This document shows positions 177-12,592 of a stretch of 64,000 nucleotides of DNA, one piece after another. The notes below the pieces were generated by a model. That model had not been told where the DNA came from. It ran no database searches and saw only the letters and a list, made by a program, of their open reading frames with translations. Position 1 is the first letter of the stretch, and every line of letters starts with the position of its first letter. The DNA lies in NCBI GenBank assembly GCA_015521615.1, contig WANW01000059.1, positions 802 through 64,801 of the forward strand. Direction: 5' to 3'. Made by a program: the position numbers and the translations under genes. The DNA comes from Candidatus Hydrothermarchaeota archaeon. GTDB taxonomy: Archaea > Hydrothermarchaeota > Hydrothermarchaeia > Hydrothermarchaeales > BMS3B.

Positions 177-266
177 GCGGCGGGGTAACCAAGATCGGTC
201 AAGGTGACCGATTGAGGATCGGTGCTCGGACCAGAGCGCGCGGGTTCAAGTCCCGCCCCCGCCGCA
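177..266 (+). tRNA. tRNA-Leu (anticodon GAG), type II with a long variable arm. Ends are approximate; the best acceptor pairing is 179-185/257-263.
   Basis: Cloverleaf read directly: anticodon stem ACCGA/TCGGT with loop TTGAGGA, 16-nt variable arm, T-arm GCGGG-TTCAAGT-CCCGC, 7-bp GC-rich acceptor stem. CCA is not encoded. Confidence 0.8.
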
Positions 267-425
267 TGAATACCTTTGTTGTATAGGGGTATAAAAAATT
301 TACCATTTTTTCTCCAGCACCAACCGGGACTGATATTACTTTTATACTTTTCCGGCGCTCTCGGGCAACGCCTAAATATGTGCGTTGCTGCATATATGCT
401 ACCTTTCCACCAAGGAGGGGTTGAG

Positions 426-671
426 ATGAAGAATGTGCGAATAATAATAACATCCGGTGATGGAAAGACGCATGTGACCGAGGTCAGGTCCTCGGTCTGG
501 CTTGAGAAGGCAGGGATGCGGAAGTGCAACGGTAGCTACATCCTTGATCTCGCCGTTGCCAAGGTGGAGATGCCAGAGGATGTGGGCTACGAATTCGTTG
601 AGGATCTTGCATTGCTTCTCTCATACCGGGAGCGCAAGAAGCTCGGGGAAGCGCTGCTAGCAAGCATTTAA
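426..671 (+). CDS. Small hypothetical protein (81 aa) between tRNA-Leu and the integrase.
   Basis: ATG preceded by a GGAGGGG Shine-Dalgarno-like motif. The longer ORF-track start upstream lacks an RBS. Confidence 0.4.
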   Translation: MKNVRIIITSGDGKTHVTEVRSSVWLEKAGMRKCNGSYILDLAVAKVEMPEDVGYEFVEDLALLLSYRERKKLGEALLASI

Positions 672-703
672 GCGTTTGCACTCTAATTTTTTACTGAGCA
701 GTT

Positions 704-2116
704 ATGGCAGAGAAAGACTTCTTTAAGTACAGGAAGCGATATCAACGGGAGCTGAAGTTGCTCGAAGAGGCTGACATCCACCCCAACAACAAGAGGCTTA
801 TCAAGGAATTCGACAGGGCTTGCCGGGCGGGAACCTTTGGAAAGAAGCTTGACTATCCATCTGCACAGGAGCAGCTCAACACCCTGCGGAGGTTCTGTCA
901 ATTTTTTGAGAAAGACCTGTACTGGGCTACTCAGCAAGACTTCGACGAAGCTTTTGCCAAGATTGAGGAACACTTTGAGAATTTAAGAAGAGAGCGCCAG
1001 AAGAGGGGGCTTGATGAGAAGATTTCGGGGGATTGGGCTATTTATCGCTTCAAAGTTACAGTTAAGAAGTTTATGCGCTGGCTGAGATGGGCGTACTGGT
1101 ACCCAGAGGGTTACCCCGGCAAGGAGAAACTTGACCCAGCTGAAATATTCTGGAAGACCGGTTTTGCCAGGCGTAAAAAACCCCTCTACCCTCTTGAGGT
1201 TGCTCACATCTACGCCGAAACGCCCAAATCAGAACTCCGTGATAGGTCCCTTCCACCATGGCGTGAGATTGGTAAGATCTGGGATAAGCTGGCGAGTGCA
1301 GCTGCGAACCTGCGGGATAAAGCCATCTTCAAGTGTCAGAAAAAGAAAGGCCCACGTGTCGGGGGGCTTGGCTCCATGCTTTTTGGGGATTTGGAAGAGC
1401 TTGATATAGGTTACAAGTTTTACATCAGGGACAAGAACAGAGAAAACGTGGTCGCCACCCCTATTTATGACGATTTGGAAGACATAGAGGCCATCAGGGC
1501 CTATCTGCTTGAAAGGGAGGCAATGCTAAGGGACTGGGGATATGATCCCTACGACCCAAAGCTTCCCCTCTGGCTCAAATACAACCAAAATAAGCCCGTG
1601 ATGATTGACTACCAGGACATTCGCAACGCTATCAAGAGGGCAAAAGACCGCTGGAACAAGCTGCACCCTGAGGACCCAATCACATACCGCCTCTATAACC
1701 ATCTCACGCGCTTCTATGCCGAAGGTGTGGATCAGAAGATCAAGAAAATCCCAGATAACATTCGAAGGAAGGAACGCGGCTGGTCCCCTACCTCGCCAAT
1801 GCCCGGTAAGTACGGGGCTATGATTGAGGATGTCGATATAGAGGAATTCTACGAGGAGAAGGCTGGGATAAAAGAGACCGAGGAGCAGAAAAAGAAAAAG
1901 AAGTGCTTCCGCTGCGGGTTTATCAACGAGGCACACTTAGAAAAGTGCTTCCGCTGTGGAACATGGCTTGATCCAAAGAGGATATTAGAGATAGAAAATA
2001 TGAAGGTGGCCGCCTTAGAAAGGAGGATGGAAATTTTGGAGGAGGTTGTCAGAATACTGGCTGGCAATAATGTGGAAGCTGTAGTTTCTTCTGATGCACG
2101 GCCTCCTAAGCTGTAG
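704..2116 (+). CDS. Tyrosine-recombinase-like integrase (470 aa) with a C-terminal C4 zinc ribbon.
   Basis: C-terminal half carries a K-x-x-R-x-x-V-x-x-P-like beta-hairpin (DKNRENVVATPI), an H-x-x-R box (NHLTR), and a candidate catalytic Tyr downstream. It ends with CFRCG...CFRCG. The stop codon TAG (2114-2116) is embedded in a tRNA-Arg 3'-half fragment. Confidence 0.55.
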   Translation: MAEKDFFKYRKRYQRELKLLEEADIHPNNKRLIKEFDRACRAGTFGKKLDYPSAQEQLNTLRRFCQFFEKDLYWATQQDFDEAFAKIEEHFENLRRERQKRGLDEKISGDWAIYRFKVTVKKFMRWLRWAYWYPEGYPGKEKLDPAEIFWKTGFARRKKPLYPLEVAHIYAETPKSELRDRSLPPWREIGKIWDKLASAAANLRDKAIFKCQKKKGPRVGGLGSMLFGDLEELDIGYKFYIRDKNRENVVATPIYDDLEDIEAIRAYLLEREAMLRDWGYDPYDPKLPLWLKYNQNKPVMIDYQDIRNAIKRAKDRWNKLHPEDPITYRLYNHLTRFYAEGVDQKIKKIPDNIRRKERGWSPTSPMPGKYGAMIEDVDIEEFYEEKAGIKETEEQKKKKKCFRCGFINEAHLEKCFRCGTWLDPKRILEIENMKVAALERRMEILEEVVRILAGNNVEAVVSSDARPPKL

Positions 2117-2144
2117 ATCGGGGGTTCAAATCCCCCCGGGCCCG
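2098..2144 (+). other. 47-nt fragment equal to the 3' half of a tRNA-Arg(CCU), from the anticodon stem-loop through the T-arm and acceptor 3' strand. Candidate att core (attR).
   Basis: Anticodon stem ACGGC/GCTGT with loop CTCCTAA (anticodon CCT), T-arm GGGGG-TTCAAAT-CCCCC, acceptor 3' strand CGGGCCC plus G. No matching D-arm or 5' acceptor strand occurs upstream, so this is not a complete tRNA gene. Confidence 0.6.
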
Positions 2145-2400
2145 CTTACCTTATTTTTCCGTTGCCTCTGGAGGATTGGTGCACGAGTACCCCATAAGAT
2201 CTTCAGCTGCTGGCAGCACAGCCACCGGGACGATAGAAGCCAAAGAGAAGCTGCTCAAAGGCTATGATGAGTTGAAAAAGGAGACCAAGGAGGAGCTGCT
2301 CAGGGAGTTGTTGAAGGAGTAGAGCAGATTATGTTACCTGTAACATAAGTTGTAACAAATCATTTCCCTGTAAAATATGTTAACTCGGAAAGCCGCTTAT

Positions 2401-2418
2401 GAAATAATATTATATTTC
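2401..2418. promoter_or_regulatory. Near-palindrome GAAATAATATTATATTTC (14 of 18 self-complementary), downstream of the same regulator gene. Related to the 2886-2905 site.
   Basis: Shares GAAAT...ATTTC arms and an AATATT core with the perfect palindrome. Confidence 0.35.
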
Positions 2419-2518
2419 GAGTAATTGCAAAAAAGAAGCCCGTTCAAAAATTCCTACGAAATTTTTCCTCACTCATCTAAGATAGGTGCCCCAAAAATTC
2501 GAAAGAAGCATAAATAAA

Positions 2519-2785
2519 TTATAAATTTTCCATATCGAGAAAGTCTTCAACCTTTTTGACGTAGTAACGCTTTTTCAGCCTCCCCTTCTCCTCGACAACC
2601 TCCACTCTGAGGTCGTCCTCCAGTCTTCGCAGGCTACCCTGTACCTTGCCCGTGCTCCAGTTGAGCGCTTTAGCTATCTCATAGAGCGTTTTCCCGGGGT
2701 TAGCTTCCAAGTAGTGGAGGAGCTCCATGTCGGTCATCCTACCTATCAGCTCCCTCTTCTTTATCGCTCTAACAGTCCTTGGCAT
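2519..2785 (-). CDS. Small winged-helix transcriptional regulator (88 aa).
   Basis: wHTH-like sequence (TLYEIAKALNWSTGKVQGSLRRLEDDL). Flanked by AT-rich DNA and palindromic sites. Confidence 0.55.
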   Translation of the reverse strand: MPRTVRAIKKRELIGRMTDMELLHYLEANPGKTLYEIAKALNWSTGKVQGSLRRLEDDLRVEVVEEKGRLKKRYYVKKVEDFLDMENL

Positions 2786-2885
2786 GCTCAGCCTCCACTT
2801 TAATTACTTTAAGGTAATTAAAGTTATGCATAGTATTTAAACTTTTCGGATAAAATATAAACAAAATAGAAAAACTTATATATAC

Positions 2886-2905
2886 GAAATATAATATTAT
2901 ATTTC
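2886..2905. promoter_or_regulatory. Perfect 20-bp palindrome GAAATATAATATTATATTTC, about 100 bp upstream of the wHTH regulator start. Putative operator.
   Basis: The sequence is its own reverse complement. Confidence 0.5.
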
Positions 2906-3381
2906 ATGAATGACATCAAGTCAAGCTAAAACCTTCAGAGAAAGCAACTCTCCTTGTCCTGTATAAAGTATGTAAAGGGTCTCTTAAATGTCACGTTCCA
3001 ATTGAAGCTATTCAGGCTAAGTTTAAAAACATGAGAGACACGTGCCGGTGAAGGCGCTTCGCATACTGGCGAGGCTGGGCCTTGTGGTCAGGCATCCAAC
3101 TAAGGGAGGGGTTACTTACCAGCTCACTCGCATCGGAAAAGAGTATGTGGAGACGCAGTTAAGAGAGTTTCTTTAAATAGCTTCTGGTTAAAGGTAGCGT
3201 TCAGAAAAGACTTCTTTTTGGAACACCCAAAACGGCGAGGGCGCTCAGTACCGGAAGCATCTACCGCGATTGGGCGGTGGTTTTGGAACTTTTTAATCAC
3301 GGGTGTGAATGTAACTCTTATATACTCCTTCAAGGATACGGAGGTGAAACCTATTTATACAGACCTTTTTAATTTAGTTCT

Positions 3382-3849
3382 ATGGGCATCTACGGAACTA
3401 AGGCCAGCCTGTACTCTGATTTATCCCTCACGCTGGAATTTCTCGTAACTGCTATGTTCTTCACCGGTTACTATTTTGCCAGGAAAAGGAATTTTTCATT
3501 GCATCCTAAGTTTATGGCGACTGCTTTTATGCTGGACATTGCCTTTCTTGTAAGCTACATGATAAAATCACTCGCCGAAGGAAGGACTGAGTTTGCTGGG
3601 CCCGCCTTAATCTATAAGCTTGTGTATCTTCCAACAGTGATATTTCACTCAATAATATCCATAGTTGTGCTTTTATTAGCGGCTTTCATGGTTTACAATG
3701 GCATAAGAAACTTTGACAGAGAAAAACTGAGCATGAAACCAGAAAACGTGCTAAAGCACCGGAAATTCGGTAGGATAACATTGACCACATGGGTACTCTC
3801 GTTCATGTCAGGTCTCGCGGTTTATCTCCTTCTATATGTCCTGTACTGA
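3382..3849 (+). CDS. Integral membrane protein of about 4 TM helices (DUF420-like).
   Basis: Hydrophobic helices in the translated ORF. Size and pattern resemble DUF420 proteins. Confidence 0.45.
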   Translation: MGIYGTKASLYSDLSLTLEFLVTAMFFTGYYFARKRNFSLHPKFMATAFMLDIAFLVSYMIKSLAEGRTEFAGPALIYKLVYLPTVIFHSIISIVVLLLAAFMVYNGIRNFDREKLSMKPENVLKHRKFGRITLTTWVLSFMSGLAVYLLLYVLY

Positions 3850-3937
3850 CTTCACAAAAGGTGCCTCCGCTTTGTCTGTTTGTTGTCAAAAAACAGATAA
3901 ATTTATTAATCTGCACTCCGAGAATTAATAGATACCA

Positions 3938-4441
3938 ATGTGGAGCGAGATAGAAAAACACTTCAGGAAATTTCCAATGCAGAAGCGGGTGGCACTCTTT
4001 CTCCTTCGCAAGGGCTTCCAGGTAAATGAGCACGCCCGTGTCTGCGTGGGCGGGATAGATATACCCCATACCCAGGTAGCAAAGGAACTTGGCATAGATC
4101 GCCGCGTCGTTGATGCAACGGCAGAGAGGATTAGAAAGGAGGAGAGTCTCTACAGGATATTCAGTAACCTTGACTGTGTGGCTTTTCTCCGTGACGTGGC
4201 ACCAATACTGGGGCTCAACGTAGTGATAATAACGCCGGACGATGCCTCGAAGCCCGGGATAATAGGTAGAGTGGCCTCCAAGATTTCTGAGTGGGGCATA
4301 CCAATAAGGCAGGCGATAGCGGACGACCCGTACCTCTTTGAAGAACCCAGGCTGACAATAATAACCGAGGGGGAATTACCCGGGGAGCTTATTAAGGAAT
4401 TAAAGGCGCTCGACGGGGTAAAGAGGCTGACAATAATTTAG
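3938..4441 (+). CDS. ACT-domain regulator of amino acid metabolism (COG2150-like). The start may be ATG 3977.
   Basis: N-terminal HTH-like region plus C-terminal ACT-like domain. Architecture matches the archaeal COG2150 family. Confidence 0.5.
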   Translation: MWSEIEKHFRKFPMQKRVALFLLRKGFQVNEHARVCVGGIDIPHTQVAKELGIDRRVVDATAERIRKEESLYRIFSNLDCVAFLRDVAPILGLNVVIITPDDASKPGIIGRVASKISEWGIPIRQAIADDPYLFEEPRLTIITEGELPGELIKELKALDGVKRLTII

Positions 4442-4474
4442 CTTTTTCCATGTCATCTTTGAGGATACGGGGAA

Positions 4475-5431
4475 ATGAAAATCTCACTGGGACTTACAAC
4501 GAGCATGCCCGTGATGCAGGGTGTAAAGCTTGCAAGGCTTGCAGAGGAGCAGGGTTATACGAGAATATTCGTGGGCGAGGATGCACTATCCCGCGAGATT
4601 TTCACATACCTGGCAACTATTGCCGTTAAAACGCAGGACATCCCCCTAGCTTCAGGAATATTATCCCCTTATCTCAGAAGCCTTGTGTTTATCATCTCAG
4701 CCACAGCGGGGCTGCAGATGATTACGGGAAACCGCTTTTCCCTTGGTTTAGGTGTCGGGGGCATTCCTGAGGTTGTGAAGCTTACAGGTAAGGAACCACG
4801 CAATGTGGTGGAGGTGATGAGGGAAACCGCAGAGGTGGTGCGCAGAGTATTCAGAGGCGAGGAAGTCACATATGAGGGCAGAAAGGCATGCCTCAAGGGC
4901 TACAGGCTTCGCATAGAGGATGTCGCTTTGCCTGAGATTCTATTTGGTGTGCGCGGAAAAAAGCTCCTTGCCCTGGCAGGTGAGGTTAGCGACGGTGTAA
5001 TCTTCAGCGGCCCAGATGAATACCTGAGGCAGGCAATTGAAGTGGTTAGAAGAGCAACGAAAAAGGCAGGAAGAAGGTTTGTGAATATGCACAGGGTGGT
5101 GTGGAAAGGCTTTGTTCTTGGCAACAACATAAAAAAAGCAAAGCAGATAACGGCAACGATGATTGCAAGCTCACCCGGGGAGGTGCTCCGCATGCTGGAG
5201 CTTGAGGAGGTGGCGGAGGAAATAAAGCGCGCTTTTCTCAGACGCGAGTACGCCCTCGCAATAAAGCTTGTACCAGACAGAGCCCTGCGTGAGTTCTGCT
5301 TTTTTGGCACAAAAGAGGAGATTCTGGATGCGATGGAAGAACTCCACCGGCATGGATTTGAGGAATTTATTGTAGGACCACCCTTCGGCGACTCAGCTAC
5401 AGAGGTGGTGCGCAGCTTTGGTAGCGCCTGA
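4475..5431 (+). CDS. Luciferase-like monooxygenase (LLM) family F420-dependent oxidoreductase, Mer-like.
   Basis: TIM-barrel LLM signature pattern throughout, with similarity in pattern to methylene-H4MPT reductase. Confidence 0.65.
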   Translation: MKISLGLTTSMPVMQGVKLARLAEEQGYTRIFVGEDALSREIFTYLATIAVKTQDIPLASGILSPYLRSLVFIISATAGLQMITGNRFSLGLGVGGIPEVVKLTGKEPRNVVEVMRETAEVVRRVFRGEEVTYEGRKACLKGYRLRIEDVALPEILFGVRGKKLLALAGEVSDGVIFSGPDEYLRQAIEVVRRATKKAGRRFVNMHRVVWKGFVLGNNIKKAKQITATMIASSPGEVLRMLELEEVAEEIKRAFLRREYALAIKLVPDRALREFCFFGTKEEILDAMEELHRHGFEEFIVGPPFGDSATEVVRSFGSA

Positions 5432-6293
5432 GCTTGGAATCAACTTCAACGGTAACCTGAGCAGGGAAGAAGTTGCGGCAAAGGCGAGGGCGGCTGAGCG
5501 CAATGGTGTTCGCTACCTGTGGGTGGGTGAATCAAAGCCACTGGTGCACCCTTTCCCGATAATGACACTCCTTGCGGAGAGCACAACGCATGCCACAATA
5601 GGATCTGCGATACTCTCGGCGATGAGCAACCGCTGCTTCCACATCGCAAAGGCATTTAGGGTGCTCAGGGAGGCATATGGACAGCGCTTTATCGCAGGTA
5701 TCGCTCCCGGGGACTTGCATGGGCTGAAGGTTGAGTGCATCGCAAGCAGGGGTGTGGTGGCACGCCTCGAGAAGTGCATCTCCAGAATAAAGGGGGTGGT
5801 ACCCGTCTTTGTTGGAGCCTCGGGACCAAAGCTGATAGAGCTGGCCAGTATTAGAGGTGAGGGTGTGATACTCAACTACGCTCACCCAGAGTTCATAAAG
5901 TGGGCTCTCCGCCATGTAAGGAGGGAGAGGTACCTCGCCTGCATAGCACCTGCGCTTGTTCTGCCAGATAAAGAAAATATGGCAGAGCTCATGGGTGCAG
6001 CTGCTGTGGTAGCGAGTGGCGCAAATCCCGTGTTTATTGCAGATATGGGCATTGAAGAGAAGGTAACTGAAATCAGAAATATGGTTAAGCGAGACAGATG
6101 GGATGAGCTTGCAGAGCATGAGAACTTCCTTCTGGAATACTTCACCATCTCCGGAAGTGTTGACGAGGTGGTGGAGAGGATAGAGGAGCTGGCAAAGCTG
6201 GGCATGAAGCAGGTCATCCTCGGCTCACCCTTTGTTAAGAGCATTGCGTTTGAGAAAATAATAAATAGCATAAGCGAGAGGCTAGGCGTATGA
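5418..6293 (+). CDS. Second LLM-family F420-dependent oxidoreductase (tandem paralog).
   Basis: LLM-like sequence. Overlaps the upstream gene by 14 nt and the downstream gene by 4 nt (ATGA). Confidence 0.6.
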   Translation: MVAPELGINFNGNLSREEVAAKARAAERNGVRYLWVGESKPLVHPFPIMTLLAESTTHATIGSAILSAMSNRCFHIAKAFRVLREAYGQRFIAGIAPGDLHGLKVECIASRGVVARLEKCISRIKGVVPVFVGASGPKLIELASIRGEGVILNYAHPEFIKWALRHVRRERYLACIAPALVLPDKENMAELMGAAAVVASGANPVFIADMGIEEKVTEIRNMVKRDRWDELAEHENFLLEYFTISGSVDEVVERIEELAKLGMKQVILGSPFVKSIAFEKIINSISERLGV

Positions 6294-7108
6294 GAATAGT
6301 AATAGCTCACAGCCCAGATCCAGACGACGCCTTTATGTTCTATGCCCTCGCGACAGGTAAAATAGAGAGCGAGTTTGAATTTGTGGATGTGACCCATGAC
6401 ATAGAGACGCTAAACAGAAAGGCAATGCAGGGTGAGTACGAGGTCACGGCTATATCAATCCACGCGTATCCCTACCTGGCGGAGCGCTATGCCCTGCTCA
6501 ACTGCGGGGCGAGCATGGGGGATAACTACGGCCCAATCGTTGTCGCCAGGGAAAAGCTGGATTCTCTGGAAGGGAAGCGCATCGCCATACCGGGGAAGCT
6601 TACCTCAGCTTATCTCGCCCTGAAGCTGTATGAGCGCAACTTCTCTCCTGTGGAGGTACCCTTCGACCGCATCCCCGAGGCGGTGGCAGGTGGTGAAGTC
6701 GACGCTGGTTTGCTCATCCATGAGGGACAGCTCACCTACCCTGAGCTTGGCCTTGTGAAGGTGGTGGATCTCGGAGAGTGGTGGCATGGTGAGACCTCGC
6801 TCCCCCTGCCTCTGGGTGGCAACGCCATAAGGCGAGACCTTGGCGATGAAACAATGCGCAGAGTAGCTTCTTACCTCAAGCAGAGCATACGCTATGCCCT
6901 TGAGCATGAAGAGGAAGCCCTGGAATATGCGCTGCAGTTTGGACGGGGGCTTGACAGGGAGAAGAACAGAAAGTTTGTAAGGATGTACGTCAATGAGTAC
7001 ACCCTCGACTACGGCGAAAAGGGCAGGCAGGCTATAAAGCTGTTCTTAAAGAGAGGTTATGAGGAGGGAATACTCCCGAAATACGTTGAACCCGAGTTTA
7101 TAGGGTAG
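6290..7108 (+). CDS. MqnA/MqnD-family protein (periplasmic-binding-protein-like fold, futalosine pathway family).
   Basis: N-terminus IVIAHSPDPDDAFMFYAL resembles the conserved S-P-x-D-x-F motif of MqnA/MqnD. Length about 270 aa. Confidence 0.45.
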   Translation: MRIVIAHSPDPDDAFMFYALATGKIESEFEFVDVTHDIETLNRKAMQGEYEVTAISIHAYPYLAERYALLNCGASMGDNYGPIVVAREKLDSLEGKRIAIPGKLTSAYLALKLYERNFSPVEVPFDRIPEAVAGGEVDAGLLIHEGQLTYPELGLVKVVDLGEWWHGETSLPLPLGGNAIRRDLGDETMRRVASYLKQSIRYALEHEEEALEYALQFGRGLDREKNRKFVRMYVNEYTLDYGEKGRQAIKLFLKRGYEEGILPKYVEPEFIG

Positions 7109-7367
7109 CTATCCCCTCCTCCACATACCCTTTAATAAGCCTGAGCAGCTTTTCCTTATCCTCCTCGCCAAGGGTTTCAAACATCTCAATAAAATACCCG
7201 AAGATCTTTTTTACTGGTATTCTCAACTCTCCCACGTCAGAATCAAGAATGACATAGTCCTCACCCTCTATCTTCCTGATTTCCTTGGCCTTAAAAACAG
7301 AAAAGAGAAATTCCTCCTCACTCACATCCTCCTTCTTCGGCAGAAATACCCCAATACCTTCGCTCAT
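7098..7367 (-). CDS. Small hypothetical protein (89 aa).
   Basis: ORF with plausible composition, convergent with the upstream operon. Confidence 0.3.
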   Translation of the reverse strand: MSEGIGVFLPKKEDVSEEEFLFSVFKAKEIRKIEGEDYVILDSDVGELRIPVKKIFGYFIEMFETLGEEDKEKLLRLIKGYVEEGIATL

Positions 7368-7470
7368 GCATAACCCTGGATGGCGTGGTTATATAACGCT
7401 TGCGCTTGCCACCAGACACCCAGCATCAGGGATGAGAAATGGTGCAGCGCCCCTATATGAAAAACTTTAA

Positions 7471-8538
<1,068 letters not shown>

Positions 8539-8544
8539 GCGGGT

Positions 8545-9450
8545 ATGCTAGAGGTTGAGCTCTGTGGAATAAAGCTAAGAAACCCCACCATGCTGGCGAG
8601 CGGCATCTTGGGTACAAGCGGTGCCGCTCTAAAGCGCGTTGCACTGAGTGGAGGGGCAGGTGCAATTGTAACCAAATCTATAGGGCTTACACCGAGGGAG
8701 GGTCACAGAAATCCTACTGTAGTTGAAATAAATGGCGGACTTATAAGTGCAATTGGCCTAGCGAACCCGGGCTATGAGGAGTTTGGTGATGAGATTCGTG
8801 TGGCCAAGGAGGGCGGCGTTCCCGTAATAGGGAGTGTTTATGGGTTCAACTTCGCAGAGTATGCCGCCGTTGCTGAGACGCTGCAGAAGTACGGTGTAGA
8901 TGCAATTGAGCTGAACATCTCTTACCCCAATGTGGGTAAAGCTGGTGCCTTCTTTGGGTACAGCGAGGAACTTAGCCATGAGGTGGTTAAGGAGGTAAAG
9001 AAGCGGGTAAGCTTACCTGTGTTTGCGAAGCTCACTGCGGGCGCGGGGGATATTGTAGCAATAGCCAAAGCGTGCGAAGAAGCTGGTGCAGATGCGATTA
9101 CAGCGATAGGTGCGCTCCGCGCCATGAAGATAGACCTCATCACAGGAAAGCCGGTGCTGGGCAACGAAGTGGGCGGTTTATCAGGGCCGTGTATCAAACC
9201 CATCGCCCTGCGCTGCGTCTATGAGATAGCACGTGAGGTGGATATTCCCGTAATAGGATGCGGTGGTATTACCACAGGGGAGGATGCAGTGGAGTTCTTC
9301 CTGGCGGGCGCGAAGGCAGTACAGATAGGTACAGCGGTGCTATACCGCGGCATAACCGTCTTTAAAAAGGTTTCTCAGGAGATTAAGGAATATCTGGAAG
9401 AGAATGGTTACTGTAGTGTTGATGAGATAGTAGGGCTGGCGCTGAGGTAG
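8545..9450 (+). CDS. pyrD: Dihydroorotate dehydrogenase catalytic subunit (class 1B).
   Basis: TIM-barrel DHOD motifs; 301 aa; followed by its electron-transfer subunit. Confidence 0.85.
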   Translation: MLEVELCGIKLRNPTMLASGILGTSGAALKRVALSGGAGAIVTKSIGLTPREGHRNPTVVEINGGLISAIGLANPGYEEFGDEIRVAKEGGVPVIGSVYGFNFAEYAAVAETLQKYGVDAIELNISYPNVGKAGAFFGYSEELSHEVVKEVKKRVSLPVFAKLTAGAGDIVAIAKACEEAGADAITAIGALRAMKIDLITGKPVLGNEVGGLSGPCIKPIALRCVYEIAREVDIPVIGCGGITTGEDAVEFFLAGAKAVQIGTAVLYRGITVFKKVSQEIKEYLEENGYCSVDEIVGLALR

Positions 9451-10253
9451 TGGCAATGCATGAGATGCAGGTTGTAGAGATAAAGAAGATAATAAAGGAA
9501 ACGAAGAGGATAAAGACCTTCATCCTGGATCTGGATGTGAGTGCAATCCCGGGGCAGTTTGTAATGGTCTGGCTCCCGGGAGTGGATGAGAAGCCCATGA
9601 GCGTCTCATATACAAAGGGCGATCTGGGAATAACTGTTCTCCGCCTGGGTGATTTTACGAGGCGGCTATTTGAGCTCAGCCCGGGGGATGTGCTTGGCAT
9701 ACGTGGACCAATGGGCAGGGGCTTTAAGGTATATGGCGATAAACTCCTTCTCGTAGGTGGTGGGGTAGGTGTTGCACCACTTGCCCCGCTAGCCGAAGAG
9801 GCGCTCAGAGATGGGAAGGAGGTCACAGCGATAATCGGGGCGATAACAAAGAGTGAGCTTCTTTTCGTGGATCGCATTGAGCGTGCAGGCGGCAGGGTGC
9901 TTATCTCCACCGACGACGGCAGCGCTGGCAAAAAGGGCTTTACCACCGACGTGCTGCGGGAGCTTCTAGAGGAGGAAACCTTTGACCAGTGCTTTACCTG
10001 CGGCCCCGAGATAATGATGGCAAAGGTGCTGGATATTACCAGGGAGAAGAATATTCCCACTCAGGCCTCGCTCCACCGCTACTTTAAGTGTGGGATAGGC
10101 ATATGCGGACAGTGTGTGCTCGACGGAATAGGACTGCGCGTGTGCAAGGAAGGGCCCACCTTCAGAGATAAAGAACTCAGAAAATCGCCTGAGTTTGGGA
10201 GATACTGGCGCAACGCCGCAGGACAGAAGATATACTTTGGAGGTAAGAAGTAG
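9450..10253 (+). CDS. pyrK: Dihydroorotate dehydrogenase electron transfer subunit (FAD/NAD-binding with a 2Fe-2S cluster).
   Basis: Ferredoxin-reductase-like fold and a C-terminal CGIGICGQC cysteine cluster. Confidence 0.8.
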   Translation: MAMHEMQVVEIKKIIKETKRIKTFILDLDVSAIPGQFVMVWLPGVDEKPMSVSYTKGDLGITVLRLGDFTRRLFELSPGDVLGIRGPMGRGFKVYGDKLLLVGGGVGVAPLAPLAEEALRDGKEVTAIIGAITKSELLFVDRIERAGGRVLISTDDGSAGKKGFTTDVLRELLEEETFDQCFTCGPEIMMAKVLDITREKNIPTQASLHRYFKCGIGICGQCVLDGIGLRVCKEGPTFRDKELRKSPEFGRYWRNAAGQKIYFGGKK

Positions 10254-10264
10254 AGGTGAGAAGG

Positions 10265-12068
<1,804 letters not shown>

Positions 12069-12468
12069 TTTCTAAAATTGCAACTAATTTTTCCTCTTTT
12101 TGCAATCATCCAGCTCAAGCAATTTAACAAACAGCAGCAAGGATACCGATGATGGTGAATACTTTTCCTGCACTCGCGAAAGTTTTTTATTTAAGAGCGT
12201 AAATCACTATTTATCACCCGGGGGTTACCTAAAAAGGATACATGCTGTTGCGGAGGTTGACTATGATAGATGCATATATGACAATTTTATAAAAGAGATG
12301 AAATTAGAGTAAATATCCTAAAGAAGATTGTGAATGTTCCATTTTATATTGCTGAGAACAATCGTTATGGAAATAAAACTTATAGTAAGTTTTCAAACAA
12401 TGTCAATATTCAGTAATTACATCTCTTTCAAAAATTAGGCTAAAGATAATTACTGTCAAAATTTTATA

Positions 12469-12551
12469 CGCCGGGGAGGAGATTTGAACTCCTGAGCGCA
12501 GAGCGCACCAGATCTCAAGTCTGGCGCCTTTCCGGGCTAGGCTACCCCGGC
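12469..12551 (-). tRNA. tRNA-Ser (anticodon TGA), type II.
   Basis: Read on the minus strand: acceptor GCCGGGG/CCCCGGC plus discriminator G, anticodon stem CCAGA/TCTGG with loop CTTGAGA, 14-nt variable arm, T-arm AGGAG-TTCAAAT-CTCCT. Confidence 0.85.
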
Positions 12552-12592
12552 ATACTCAACGTAATTGTGGTGAATAACAAATGTAAAATAAA

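Follow-up and report, generated by a model that had tools for sequence, protein, structure and literature searches.

The left end of the stretch of archaeal DNA analysed here (the window: 64,000 nucleotides (nt), positions 802 to 64,801 of contig WANW01000059.1, assembly GCA_015521615.1) most probably lies inside a mobile element integrated in a gene for tRNA-Arg(CCU), a reading to which a probability of about 80% is assigned. Positions ~345–2146 would be the integration module of this element, and the border next to its integrase gene, int, an attR-type attachment (att) junction. The host is an uncultivated deep-sea Hydrothermarchaeota archaeon close to Candidatus Pyrohabitans. Hydrothermarchaeota is a phylum known only from metagenomes. 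The reading draws on what was observed of the junction, the empty site that corresponds to it, the identity of the recombinase and the mobility of the int cassette between host lineages.

The int open reading frame (ORF) occupies positions 704–2116 of the plus strand and encodes 470 amino acids (aa), beginning with ATG and ending with a TAG stop codon at 2114–2116. This stop codon and the last four codons of int fall within the sequence of a tRNA-Arg(CCU) 3' half. By inspection, positions 2098–2144 provide an anticodon stem (ACGGC/GCTGT), the loop CTCCTAA with the anticodon CCT, a 5-nt variable loop, a T arm (GGGGG-TTCAAAT-CCCCC), the acceptor 3' strand CGGGCCC and the discriminator G at 2144. 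The first-pass annotation, made from the sequence alone, had described this 47-nt part of a tRNA-Arg(CCU) gene with the TAG inside it. The fragment and the stop codon stand, but the block of identity is 2101–2146. This att core (plus strand) is identical in 46 of 46 nt to genuine tRNA-Arg(CCU) genes; it starts with the last bases of the 5' strand of the anticodon stem, runs through the discriminator and reaches 2 nt beyond the tRNA 3' end. The int frame enters it by 16 nt, with the core beginning 13 nt ahead of the stop codon and holding codons 467–470 and the stop.

A 42-nt pattern from the fragment matched eight genome contigs, all from Hydrothermarchaeota-like metagenome-assembled genomes, and ARAGORN called a complete tRNA-Arg(CCU) in seven of them. 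Within the window, the fragment occurs once, at a chance expectation of 0. ARAGORN and Rfam call no tRNA at the site, and the 60 nt upstream of the core are unrelated to the tRNA 5' half of the empty-site contigs, in agreement with the earlier remark that no 5' half lies upstream. Neither the two programs nor the empty-site comparison revealed a concealed 5' half or a tRNA split by an intron at 2000–2144. Across the whole window, the two programs call only a tRNA-Leu(GAG) at 179–265 and a tRNA-Ser at 12468–12552.

Two contigs of the same species, L017 (ENA REYS20-1 scaffold_7933) and L021, were retrieved by looking up the neighbouring DUF420 protein. L017 matches window positions 2101–12174 at 99.95% identity (4 mismatches and 1 gap in 10,074 nt), and L021 matches positions 2101–7427 at 99.93%. 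In both, a PEGA-domain gene and Ftr, the gene for a formyltransferase, stand ahead of a full tRNA-Arg(CCU), and the similarity of the window to both contigs ends precisely at 2101. The more distant contigs L009 (JdFR-16), L004 (JdFR-17) and L010 have the same full tRNA and the same 100–140 nt of 3' flank. Because L017, L021 and these distant relatives carry the full tRNA with the same flank, the DNA from 2101 rightwards belongs to the chromosome, and int-bearing DNA has taken the place of the 5' part of the tRNA gene. L017 and L021 are same-strain empty sites for the window locus; they hold the full tRNA with its native upstream genes at 99.9% identity, and the window fragment is therefore an attR-type junction. 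By tRNA polarity, the chromosome lies to its right and the element to its left. The first-pass annotation had deduced this polarity and had proposed both an integration site in tRNA-Arg(CCU) and a comparison with genomes lacking the insertion; the identity of the core, together with the empty sites that diverge from the window at 2101, bears it out on each count.

The int product appears, from its sequence and its structure model, to be a tyrosine recombinase that ends in a zinc-ribbon-bearing C-terminal region; its family is divergent and Xer-like. The catalytic residues R218, K244, H333-x-x-R336, W360 and Y370 occur in the conserved order, H333 and R336 having the usual HxxR spacing. R218, R336 and Y370 are invariant in alignments of 41–46 relatives, and K244, W360 and the cysteines C401, C404, C415 and C418 are at least 90% conserved. 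The protein consists of an N-terminal helical (SAM-like) domain, the catalytic domain, the zinc ribbon formed by these four cysteines, a long C-terminal helix and a disordered tail. The window protein gives no PF00589 match in Pfam even at E ≤ 1; among the 41 aligned relatives, 35 match this family (best 5e-24), and some match SAM-like N-terminal domains. The recombinase hallmarks and terminal zinc ribbon proposed in the first-pass annotation are thus upheld, the hallmarks through the aligned relatives only. In a PDB search, the profile of the family found archaeal XerA structures (2.5e-31 for 4a8e, 1.2e-29 for another) and also XerD. The AlphaFold2 model (predicted local distance difference test score (pLDDT) 86.6, predicted template modelling score 0.74) is placed by Foldseek with XerA (5hxy), lambda Int (1z19), XerH and Cre at probability 1.00, and IntI4 is also matched, in line with the two-domain fold of Xer, Cre and lambda Int.

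Relatives are scarce. A word-indexed search of 5.8 billion proteins returned only two close homologues, with 95% and 53% identity, and an exhaustive search returned 316 distant homologues at E ≤ 1e-3. The gene was found in only a handful of metagenomes. No relative of int occurs in IMG/VR; a tblastn search at E 1e-3 found nothing among the 72,556 plasmid records of PLSDB, and one against INPHARED gave only weak matches (22–24%) to integrases of the haloviruses Humcor1 and BJ1. The protein belongs to an integrase lineage that is rare and escapes curated profiles, and whose C-terminal part carries a zinc ribbon and a coiled coil.

With XerA and XerD as the closest solved structures and a weak match to the NCBIfam XerA model, int might be considered a cellular, domesticated Xer-like recombinase gene that merely lies beside a degenerate tRNA pseudogene. 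This is extremely improbable. The match to the XerA equivalog NF040815 reaches 15.7 bits against a cut-off of 220 and the gene is missing from the same-strain contigs, so the window protein is evidently not XerA itself. Moreover, its narrow distribution among metagenomes does not fit a cellular gene, int travels with element genes, and the adjoining fragment is identical in all 46 nt to a live tRNA.

The cassette at ~345–2146 (orf81, int and the core; 1.8 kb) recurs in three further host backgrounds at 84–97% nt identity. In L011 (JGI Ga0180885_1059), the cassette is 95% identical and the right flank, on the DUF420 side, is 98% identical to JdFR-16. In L012, L005 and L033 (97%) and in L001 (88%), it is followed by a UbiB gene and then by housekeeping genes. 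In L023 (GCA_054014855.1, an 89.6-kb contig; 84%), the right flank carries MutL/MutS. The four chromosomal right flanks are distinct and mutually unrelated, and in each case the homology of the cassette stops where the core ends. An episomal attP arm was considered for the CTACAGTTTT flank of L012 and L001 and rejected, as L033 shows it to be the chromosomal 3' end of UbiB followed by housekeeping genes. The Int proteins of the window, L011 and L012 differ by only 0–5 residues (98–99% identity) although their hosts differ, which indicates that the cassette has recently spread horizontally between host lineages. In four integrated contexts (window, L011, L023 and L033/L012), int is an unsplit ORF of 470 aa, so the earlier claim that the gene stays intact after integration holds.

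The second gene of the cassette, orf81 (426–671, plus strand), lies 33 nt upstream of int in the same orientation and is conserved alongside it at 86–99% aa identity. It has no family match in Pfam, PHROG or NCBIfam, and its single-sequence structure model (pLDDT 49) is too poor for a fold search; it may encode an accessory or directionality factor. To the left of the cassette, every copy is element-like, with ORFans and genes for HTH_17/excisionase-like, ParB, HNH, MCM, S8 protease, serine recombinase and HicAB proteins. The window therefore probably shows the last 2.1 kb of a multi-kb element.

The first-pass annotation had labelled the integration as SSV-type. A suicidal system of this kind, with attP inside the gene of a fusellovirus-like integrase and the att site moved to its 3' end, would agree with the 16-nt overlap of core and int and with the choice of a tRNA-Arg 3' half as target, as in SSV1 (PMC3293823, PMC8371274). 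However, the SSV, pTN3 and pT26-2 integrases carry the domain PF16795 (PMC8371274), which is absent among the reported matches of the window protein and its 41 relatives. SSV integrases are likewise absent from the PDB profile matches listed at E ≤ 0.01 and from the best 50 Foldseek matches, and int keeps its full length after integration. The label cannot be kept: with no PF16795 match, PF00589 in most relatives, XerA, XerD, lambda Int and Cre as best matches and an unsplit gene, membership in the SSV-type family is refuted, and suicidal integration is very improbable.

Several points weigh against an integrated element. The attL of the window's own element was never observed, and the exact window junction rests on a single assembly, whose source contig (66,301 nt, encoding P0175, a protein identical to the window integrase) probably starts at the window edge. 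The 10 kb upstream of int contain no full tRNA-Arg in L011, L012 or L023. Int itself is not recognised directly by Pfam, PHROGs or NCBIfam and stays below every curated family threshold. Finally, the outer junctions of a complete relative on contig Ga0314848_000226, discussed below, map to neighbouring points some 1 kb past the tRNA (~3291 and ~3309 in window equivalents); this copy may have entered by another route, its int-core being an uncut attP. The annotation had placed attL outside the window unless the element is rearranged or nested, and the window indeed lacks it; attL, a full tRNA-Arg, would lie beyond the left end, probably tens of kb away.

A junction seen in one assembly could be a chimera in which int-core-P' of an episomal or elsewhere-integrated copy was misjoined to the tRNA-Arg flank at the 46-nt identity. 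Short-read contigs do break in the core (L022 begins at window position 2118, and L001 and L032 end in or near the core), and a related P' arm resembles the native flank for 40 nt more. This is nevertheless highly unlikely, given that the analogous junction with the UbiB flank is present in three independent assemblies (L033, L012 and L001) and that the junctions with the MutL flank and the JdFR-16-like flank lie within contigs of 89.6 kb and 41 kb.

A more serious alternative is a decayed or rearranged remnant, from which attL and most of the cargo were lost or moved by deletion or by recombination between copies, leaving nothing mobile today. It would account for L012, where the element-like genes extend for only ~8 kb before radical-SAM and LEA_2 genes set in and where 10 kb contain no tRNA-Arg, as well as for the variable left neighbours of the cassette and for a window contig that breaks inside the element. 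Against this, int is intact and its 98–99% protein identity across three host backgrounds with differing flanks speaks for recent transfer, occupied and empty alleles coexist at 99.9% identity, and one full copy, 34 kb long, has genes for replication and partition. Decay is thus possible but improbable.

The integrated element thus remains the preferred reading, and integration would proceed as follows. The element would recombine with the chromosomal tRNA-Arg(CCU) gene, leaving a junction at which element DNA ends at 2100, the 46-nt core spans 2101–2146 and untouched chromosome follows. Int may bind the imperfect dyad formed by the arms of the anticodon stem as core-type sites and exchange strands at the borders of the 7-nt anticodon loop. 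Strand exchange at these borders, typical of tyrosine integrases, has been demonstrated with SSV1 Int (PMC8371274). As the shared core holds the stop codon, int ends at a TAG supplied by the tRNA sequence and the enzyme is complete in the integrated state. The outcome is a lambda-, pNOB8- or SNJ2-like (type II) system rather than a suicidal SSV-like one; it is an unusual variant of an ordinary mechanism and not a new mechanism.

The overlap of int and core looks incidental because the overlapping codons encode a non-conserved, disordered tail. Residues 465–470 of the model have a pLDDT below 50, and the 53–54% identical relatives P0002 and P0003 terminate ahead of this region; the tail is probably dispensable. 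P0173, a protein of 466 aa from a Logan contig of 1,550 nt and a member of the same 90% cluster, departs from the window protein 10 codons before the stop, with the tail ...VEAVGFRRTK. This suggests a copy joined to a different 3' sequence, either at another target or in another att state.

The surroundings of distant homologues also contain tRNA sequences. In L013 (~1480–1535), a zinc-ribbon integrase of 24% identity is followed, ~90–140 nt after its stop codon, by a tRNA 3' fragment with encoded CCA. The order of integrase and tRNA fragment seems to be a family trait, and the overlap specific to the window lineage. The reverse order, tRNA before int, recurs as well. In L002, a complete tRNA gene with an intron (24–114, anticodon CGU) lies 27 nt before the start of a 53% homologue, in the same orientation. 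In L016 (1135–1288), complete genes for tRNA-Arg(UCU) and tRNA-Thr(GGU) precede a 27% homologue from Methanoperedens by 56 nt, also in the same orientation, and a full tRNA-Leu(CAA) lies 140 nt after this integrase gene.

A complete relative of the element is found on JGI contig Ga0314848_000226 (40,984 nt; L025, L027 and L030), where the int-core is ~34 kb from the nearest full tRNA-Arg(CCU), which adjoins Ftr. Its genes encode HTH_17/excisionase-like, secreted, ArsR-like regulator, radical-SAM-like, ParB and HNH proteins, an MCM helicase, a Laminin_G_3 protein, an S8 protease, a protein annotated as antirestriction and a small serine recombinase. The tRNA-Arg(CCU) at L030 14408–14522 (minus strand) contains a 39-nt intron at the canonical position 37/38, which is absent from all eight other Hydrothermarchaeota tRNA-Arg(CCU) genes compared. 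Drawn by hand, the intron forms a bulge-helix-bulge with 3-nt bulges (UAA and AAA) and a 4-bp helix with one mismatch; the minimum-energy fold of RNAfold has a 7 × 7-nt internal loop instead. The length of the intron is a multiple of three, and it is open in the int frame. The T stem shows a compensated change, GCGGG/CCCGC versus GGGGG/CCCCC. The tRNA is followed by a native-like flank, a 183-aa ORF and a 92-nt segment (L030 13535–13626) that is 91% identical to window positions 3199–3289. In the window, the DUF420 gene follows directly after this conserved non-coding segment, which has a folding score of z = -2.3 and matches nothing in Rfam. In L030, the segment lies at the far end of the 34-kb element and takes in the 3' end of a gene for a serine recombinase of 205 aa, namely its stop codon and the 10 codons before it; the segment may be a second attachment site.

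The arrangement of Ga0314848_000226 fits two histories. Int may have crossed over within GCCTCCTAAGC, so that the P' arm of the element delivered the intron, a new 3' exon and a captured flank. Alternatively, the copy may be a plain 35-kb insertion between the 92-nt segment and the DUF420 promoter, with the int-core as an uncut attP and the intron allele belonging to the host. The second history fits because both outer junctions map to the window equivalents ~3291 and ~3309, and the evidence leans slightly towards it. Given these collinear outer junctions, the status of the full tRNA-Arg of this contig as attL is ambiguous. The choice leaves the conclusion on the window unchanged, since the window junction, for which a same-strain empty allele is available, falls inside the tRNA.

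The first history can be extended, tentatively, on the basis of Ga0314848_000226 and not of the window. The episomal attP might carry the 3' part of an intron-bearing tRNA-Arg, and crossover in the 11-nt identity of the anticodon loop, GCCTCCTAAGC, might give the host the intron and the new 3' exon (GCGGG/CCCGC) while trimming int by 13 codons. By the same doubtful scheme, a 483-aa episomal Int (tail PPKPRVGKTNSLRRRKL) would become the 470-aa integrated form (tail PPKL). The conceivable forms of attP are int-GCCTCCTAAGC-CGCGGGTTGG under intron delivery versus int-core-CTCACTTTTTC. If intron delivery were true, the element would be a vector of a tRNA intron, the att sequence would be broken up against competing elements and integration would remodel the C terminus of the integrase. 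The complete relative is a possible natural case of tRNA-intron delivery by a mobile element.

Within the window, the DNA to the left of the cassette (1–91) belongs to the element. Positions 1–89 align with the intergenic/5' region beside the gene for a secreted protein next to the cassette of L012, L033 and L001; in L012 and L033, the aligned sequence directly abuts the cassette. The complete tRNA-Leu(GAG) (179–265, plus strand), on which ARAGORN and Rfam (54.4 bits) agree with the first-pass annotation, sits in an insertion of ~255 nt (~92–345) between imperfect 22-nt direct repeats at 70–91 (ACTTTTCAAGCGCTTTTGGCAA) and 346–368 (ACTTTTCCGGCGCTCTCGGGCAA) with the motif ACTTTTC..GCGCT.T.GG.CAA. 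This segment is missing from L011, L012 and L023. At the same position in L001 (1100–1188), an 89-nt type-II tRNA with the anticodon GAA is followed by the same 80 nt; ARAGORN labels it 'Phe', and its long variable arm belongs to a Ser/Leu-like body. Missense decoding, decay to a pseudogene or an error in sequencing could each explain it. The tRNA-Leu(GAG) was considered as attL and rejected, as its 3' end has no repeat in the window, the right junction lies in tRNA-Arg and the segment is an indel relative to L012, L011 and L023. By these alignments, it is a variable insertion inside the element and not the att partner of the Arg fragment, which settles part of the puzzle that its position had posed in the first-pass annotation. 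Because the second repeat copy marks the left limit of the cassette conserved between elements (homology begins at 344 in L011 and at 346 in L012), the 22-nt motif looks like a recombination hot spot or an insertion site for small tRNA-carrying segments.

On the chromosomal side of the core, positions 2147–2240 represent the native 3' flank of the tRNA-Arg gene (B' arm), which is kept in the empty-site genomes. It is followed by a strain-variable island (2241–3198) that is chromosomal in the window strain because the empty-site contigs also carry it. In the window, L017, L021 and L010, the island holds an 88-aa winged-helix gene (2519–2785, minus strand, in the window); in other genomes, it holds an ORF of 140 aa (JdFR-16), 183 aa (L030) or 149 aa (L011). 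The winged-helix gene is bracketed by a perfect 16-nt inverted repeat (2404–2419 and 2885–2900), part of a palindrome at 2886–2905.

No paper mentioning a Hydrothermarchaeota mobile element was found in the literature, and a 2021 review of archaeal tyrosine recombinases is silent on the phylum. To the extent of these searches, no integration module or att site of a Hydrothermarchaeota mobile element had been described before. What is new is the rare Xer-like integrase lineage with its zinc ribbon and an att core that swallows the stop codon of int. The occupied and empty alleles at 99.9% identity, together with the cassette in four host backgrounds, supply attB, attR and candidate attP sequences for biochemistry at high temperature.

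Features of the system are known from several others. Myxophage Mx8 targets a tRNA gene and has its attP within the 3' end of int, so that integration alters only the C-terminal end of Int. Mx8 is a bacterial phage whose integrase lineage is unrelated to that of the window, and the comparison sets it beside an element observed in the integrated form only.

The SSV-type systems (SSV1, pTN3 and pT26-2; PMC7253208, PMC8371274) resemble the window in the overlap of att with the int ORF, in a tRNA target (tRNA-Arg for SSV1), in a core of 40–50 bp and in their hyperthermophilic archaeal hosts, and MCM is also encoded by the window-related elements. They differ in that the window family lacks PF16795 and is closer to Xer, lambda Int and Cre in sequence and fold, and in that its overlap is limited to the last four codons and the stop, so that no Int(N)/Int(C) pseudogenes are formed.

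For Caldiarchaeum subterraneum, a model of insertion in tRNA-Thr has been put forward, in which a 1.8-kb insertion with tRNA fragments bears a recombinase gene (Sugahara et al. 2012, PMC3293823). This recombinase is unclassified, has 270 aa and lies beside the reconstituted tRNA; for an attP that contains an intron, the model predicts an intron-bearing tRNA copy at the other border (PMC3293823). The likeness extends to the 1.8-kb size, the coexistence of occupied and empty alleles in a population and an intron-bearing tRNA at the other border of the related element. The model matches the history of Ga0314848_000226 with crossover in the anticodon loop (PMC3293823), but here the intron-bearing tRNA occurs only in a related contig and may come from the element or from the host.

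The pNOB8-type (type II) elements target the 3' part of a tRNA gene with 40–50 bp of identity and keep int intact at one border (She et al. 2002, in PMC8371274), as is the case here. In pNOB8, however, attP lies outside the ORF, whereas the window att overlaps it, and the window int adjoins the displaced fragment (attR) and not the reconstituted tRNA. The PLSDB search at E 1e-3, a tblastn against plasmids and not a pNOB8-specific profile search, revealed no related plasmid integrase.

The closest described layout is that of the SNJ2-type integrases of haloarchaeal proviruses, in which the att core overlaps the tRNA 3' end and follows int after a short interval of constant length (Wang et al. 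2018, PMC5861418). Small co-oriented ORFs before int (Orf2/Orf3) help integration there (PMC5861418). The first-pass annotation had held the architecture of the window to be unusual; with a core at or just past the 3' end of int already known from this type, it is less exotic than supposed. The XerA/pNOB8 and SNJ2 families combine PF00589 with SAM-like domains (PMC8371274), and on domain content the window int would group with them, adding the zinc ribbon and the long C-terminal helix. Through its relatives, it shares with the SNJ2 type the combination of PF00589 and an N-terminal SAM-like domain; also shared are a core at the tRNA 3' end by the 3' end of int, an intact gene and a small co-oriented ORF upstream. 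By analogy with Orf2/Orf3, orf81 is a candidate integration helper, although it has no detectable similarity to any family. The two systems differ in the distance of int and core, which is negative in the window (the ORF runs 16 nt into the core), in the length of the core (46 nt versus 13–14 nt in SNJ2), in the zinc ribbon and long C-terminal helix of the window protein and in its hyperthermophilic Hydrothermarchaeota host. With an att site that overlaps the ORF and a gene that survives integration, the window system stands between the two textbook archaeal classes, and this intermediate layout bears on how suicidal integrases may have arisen.

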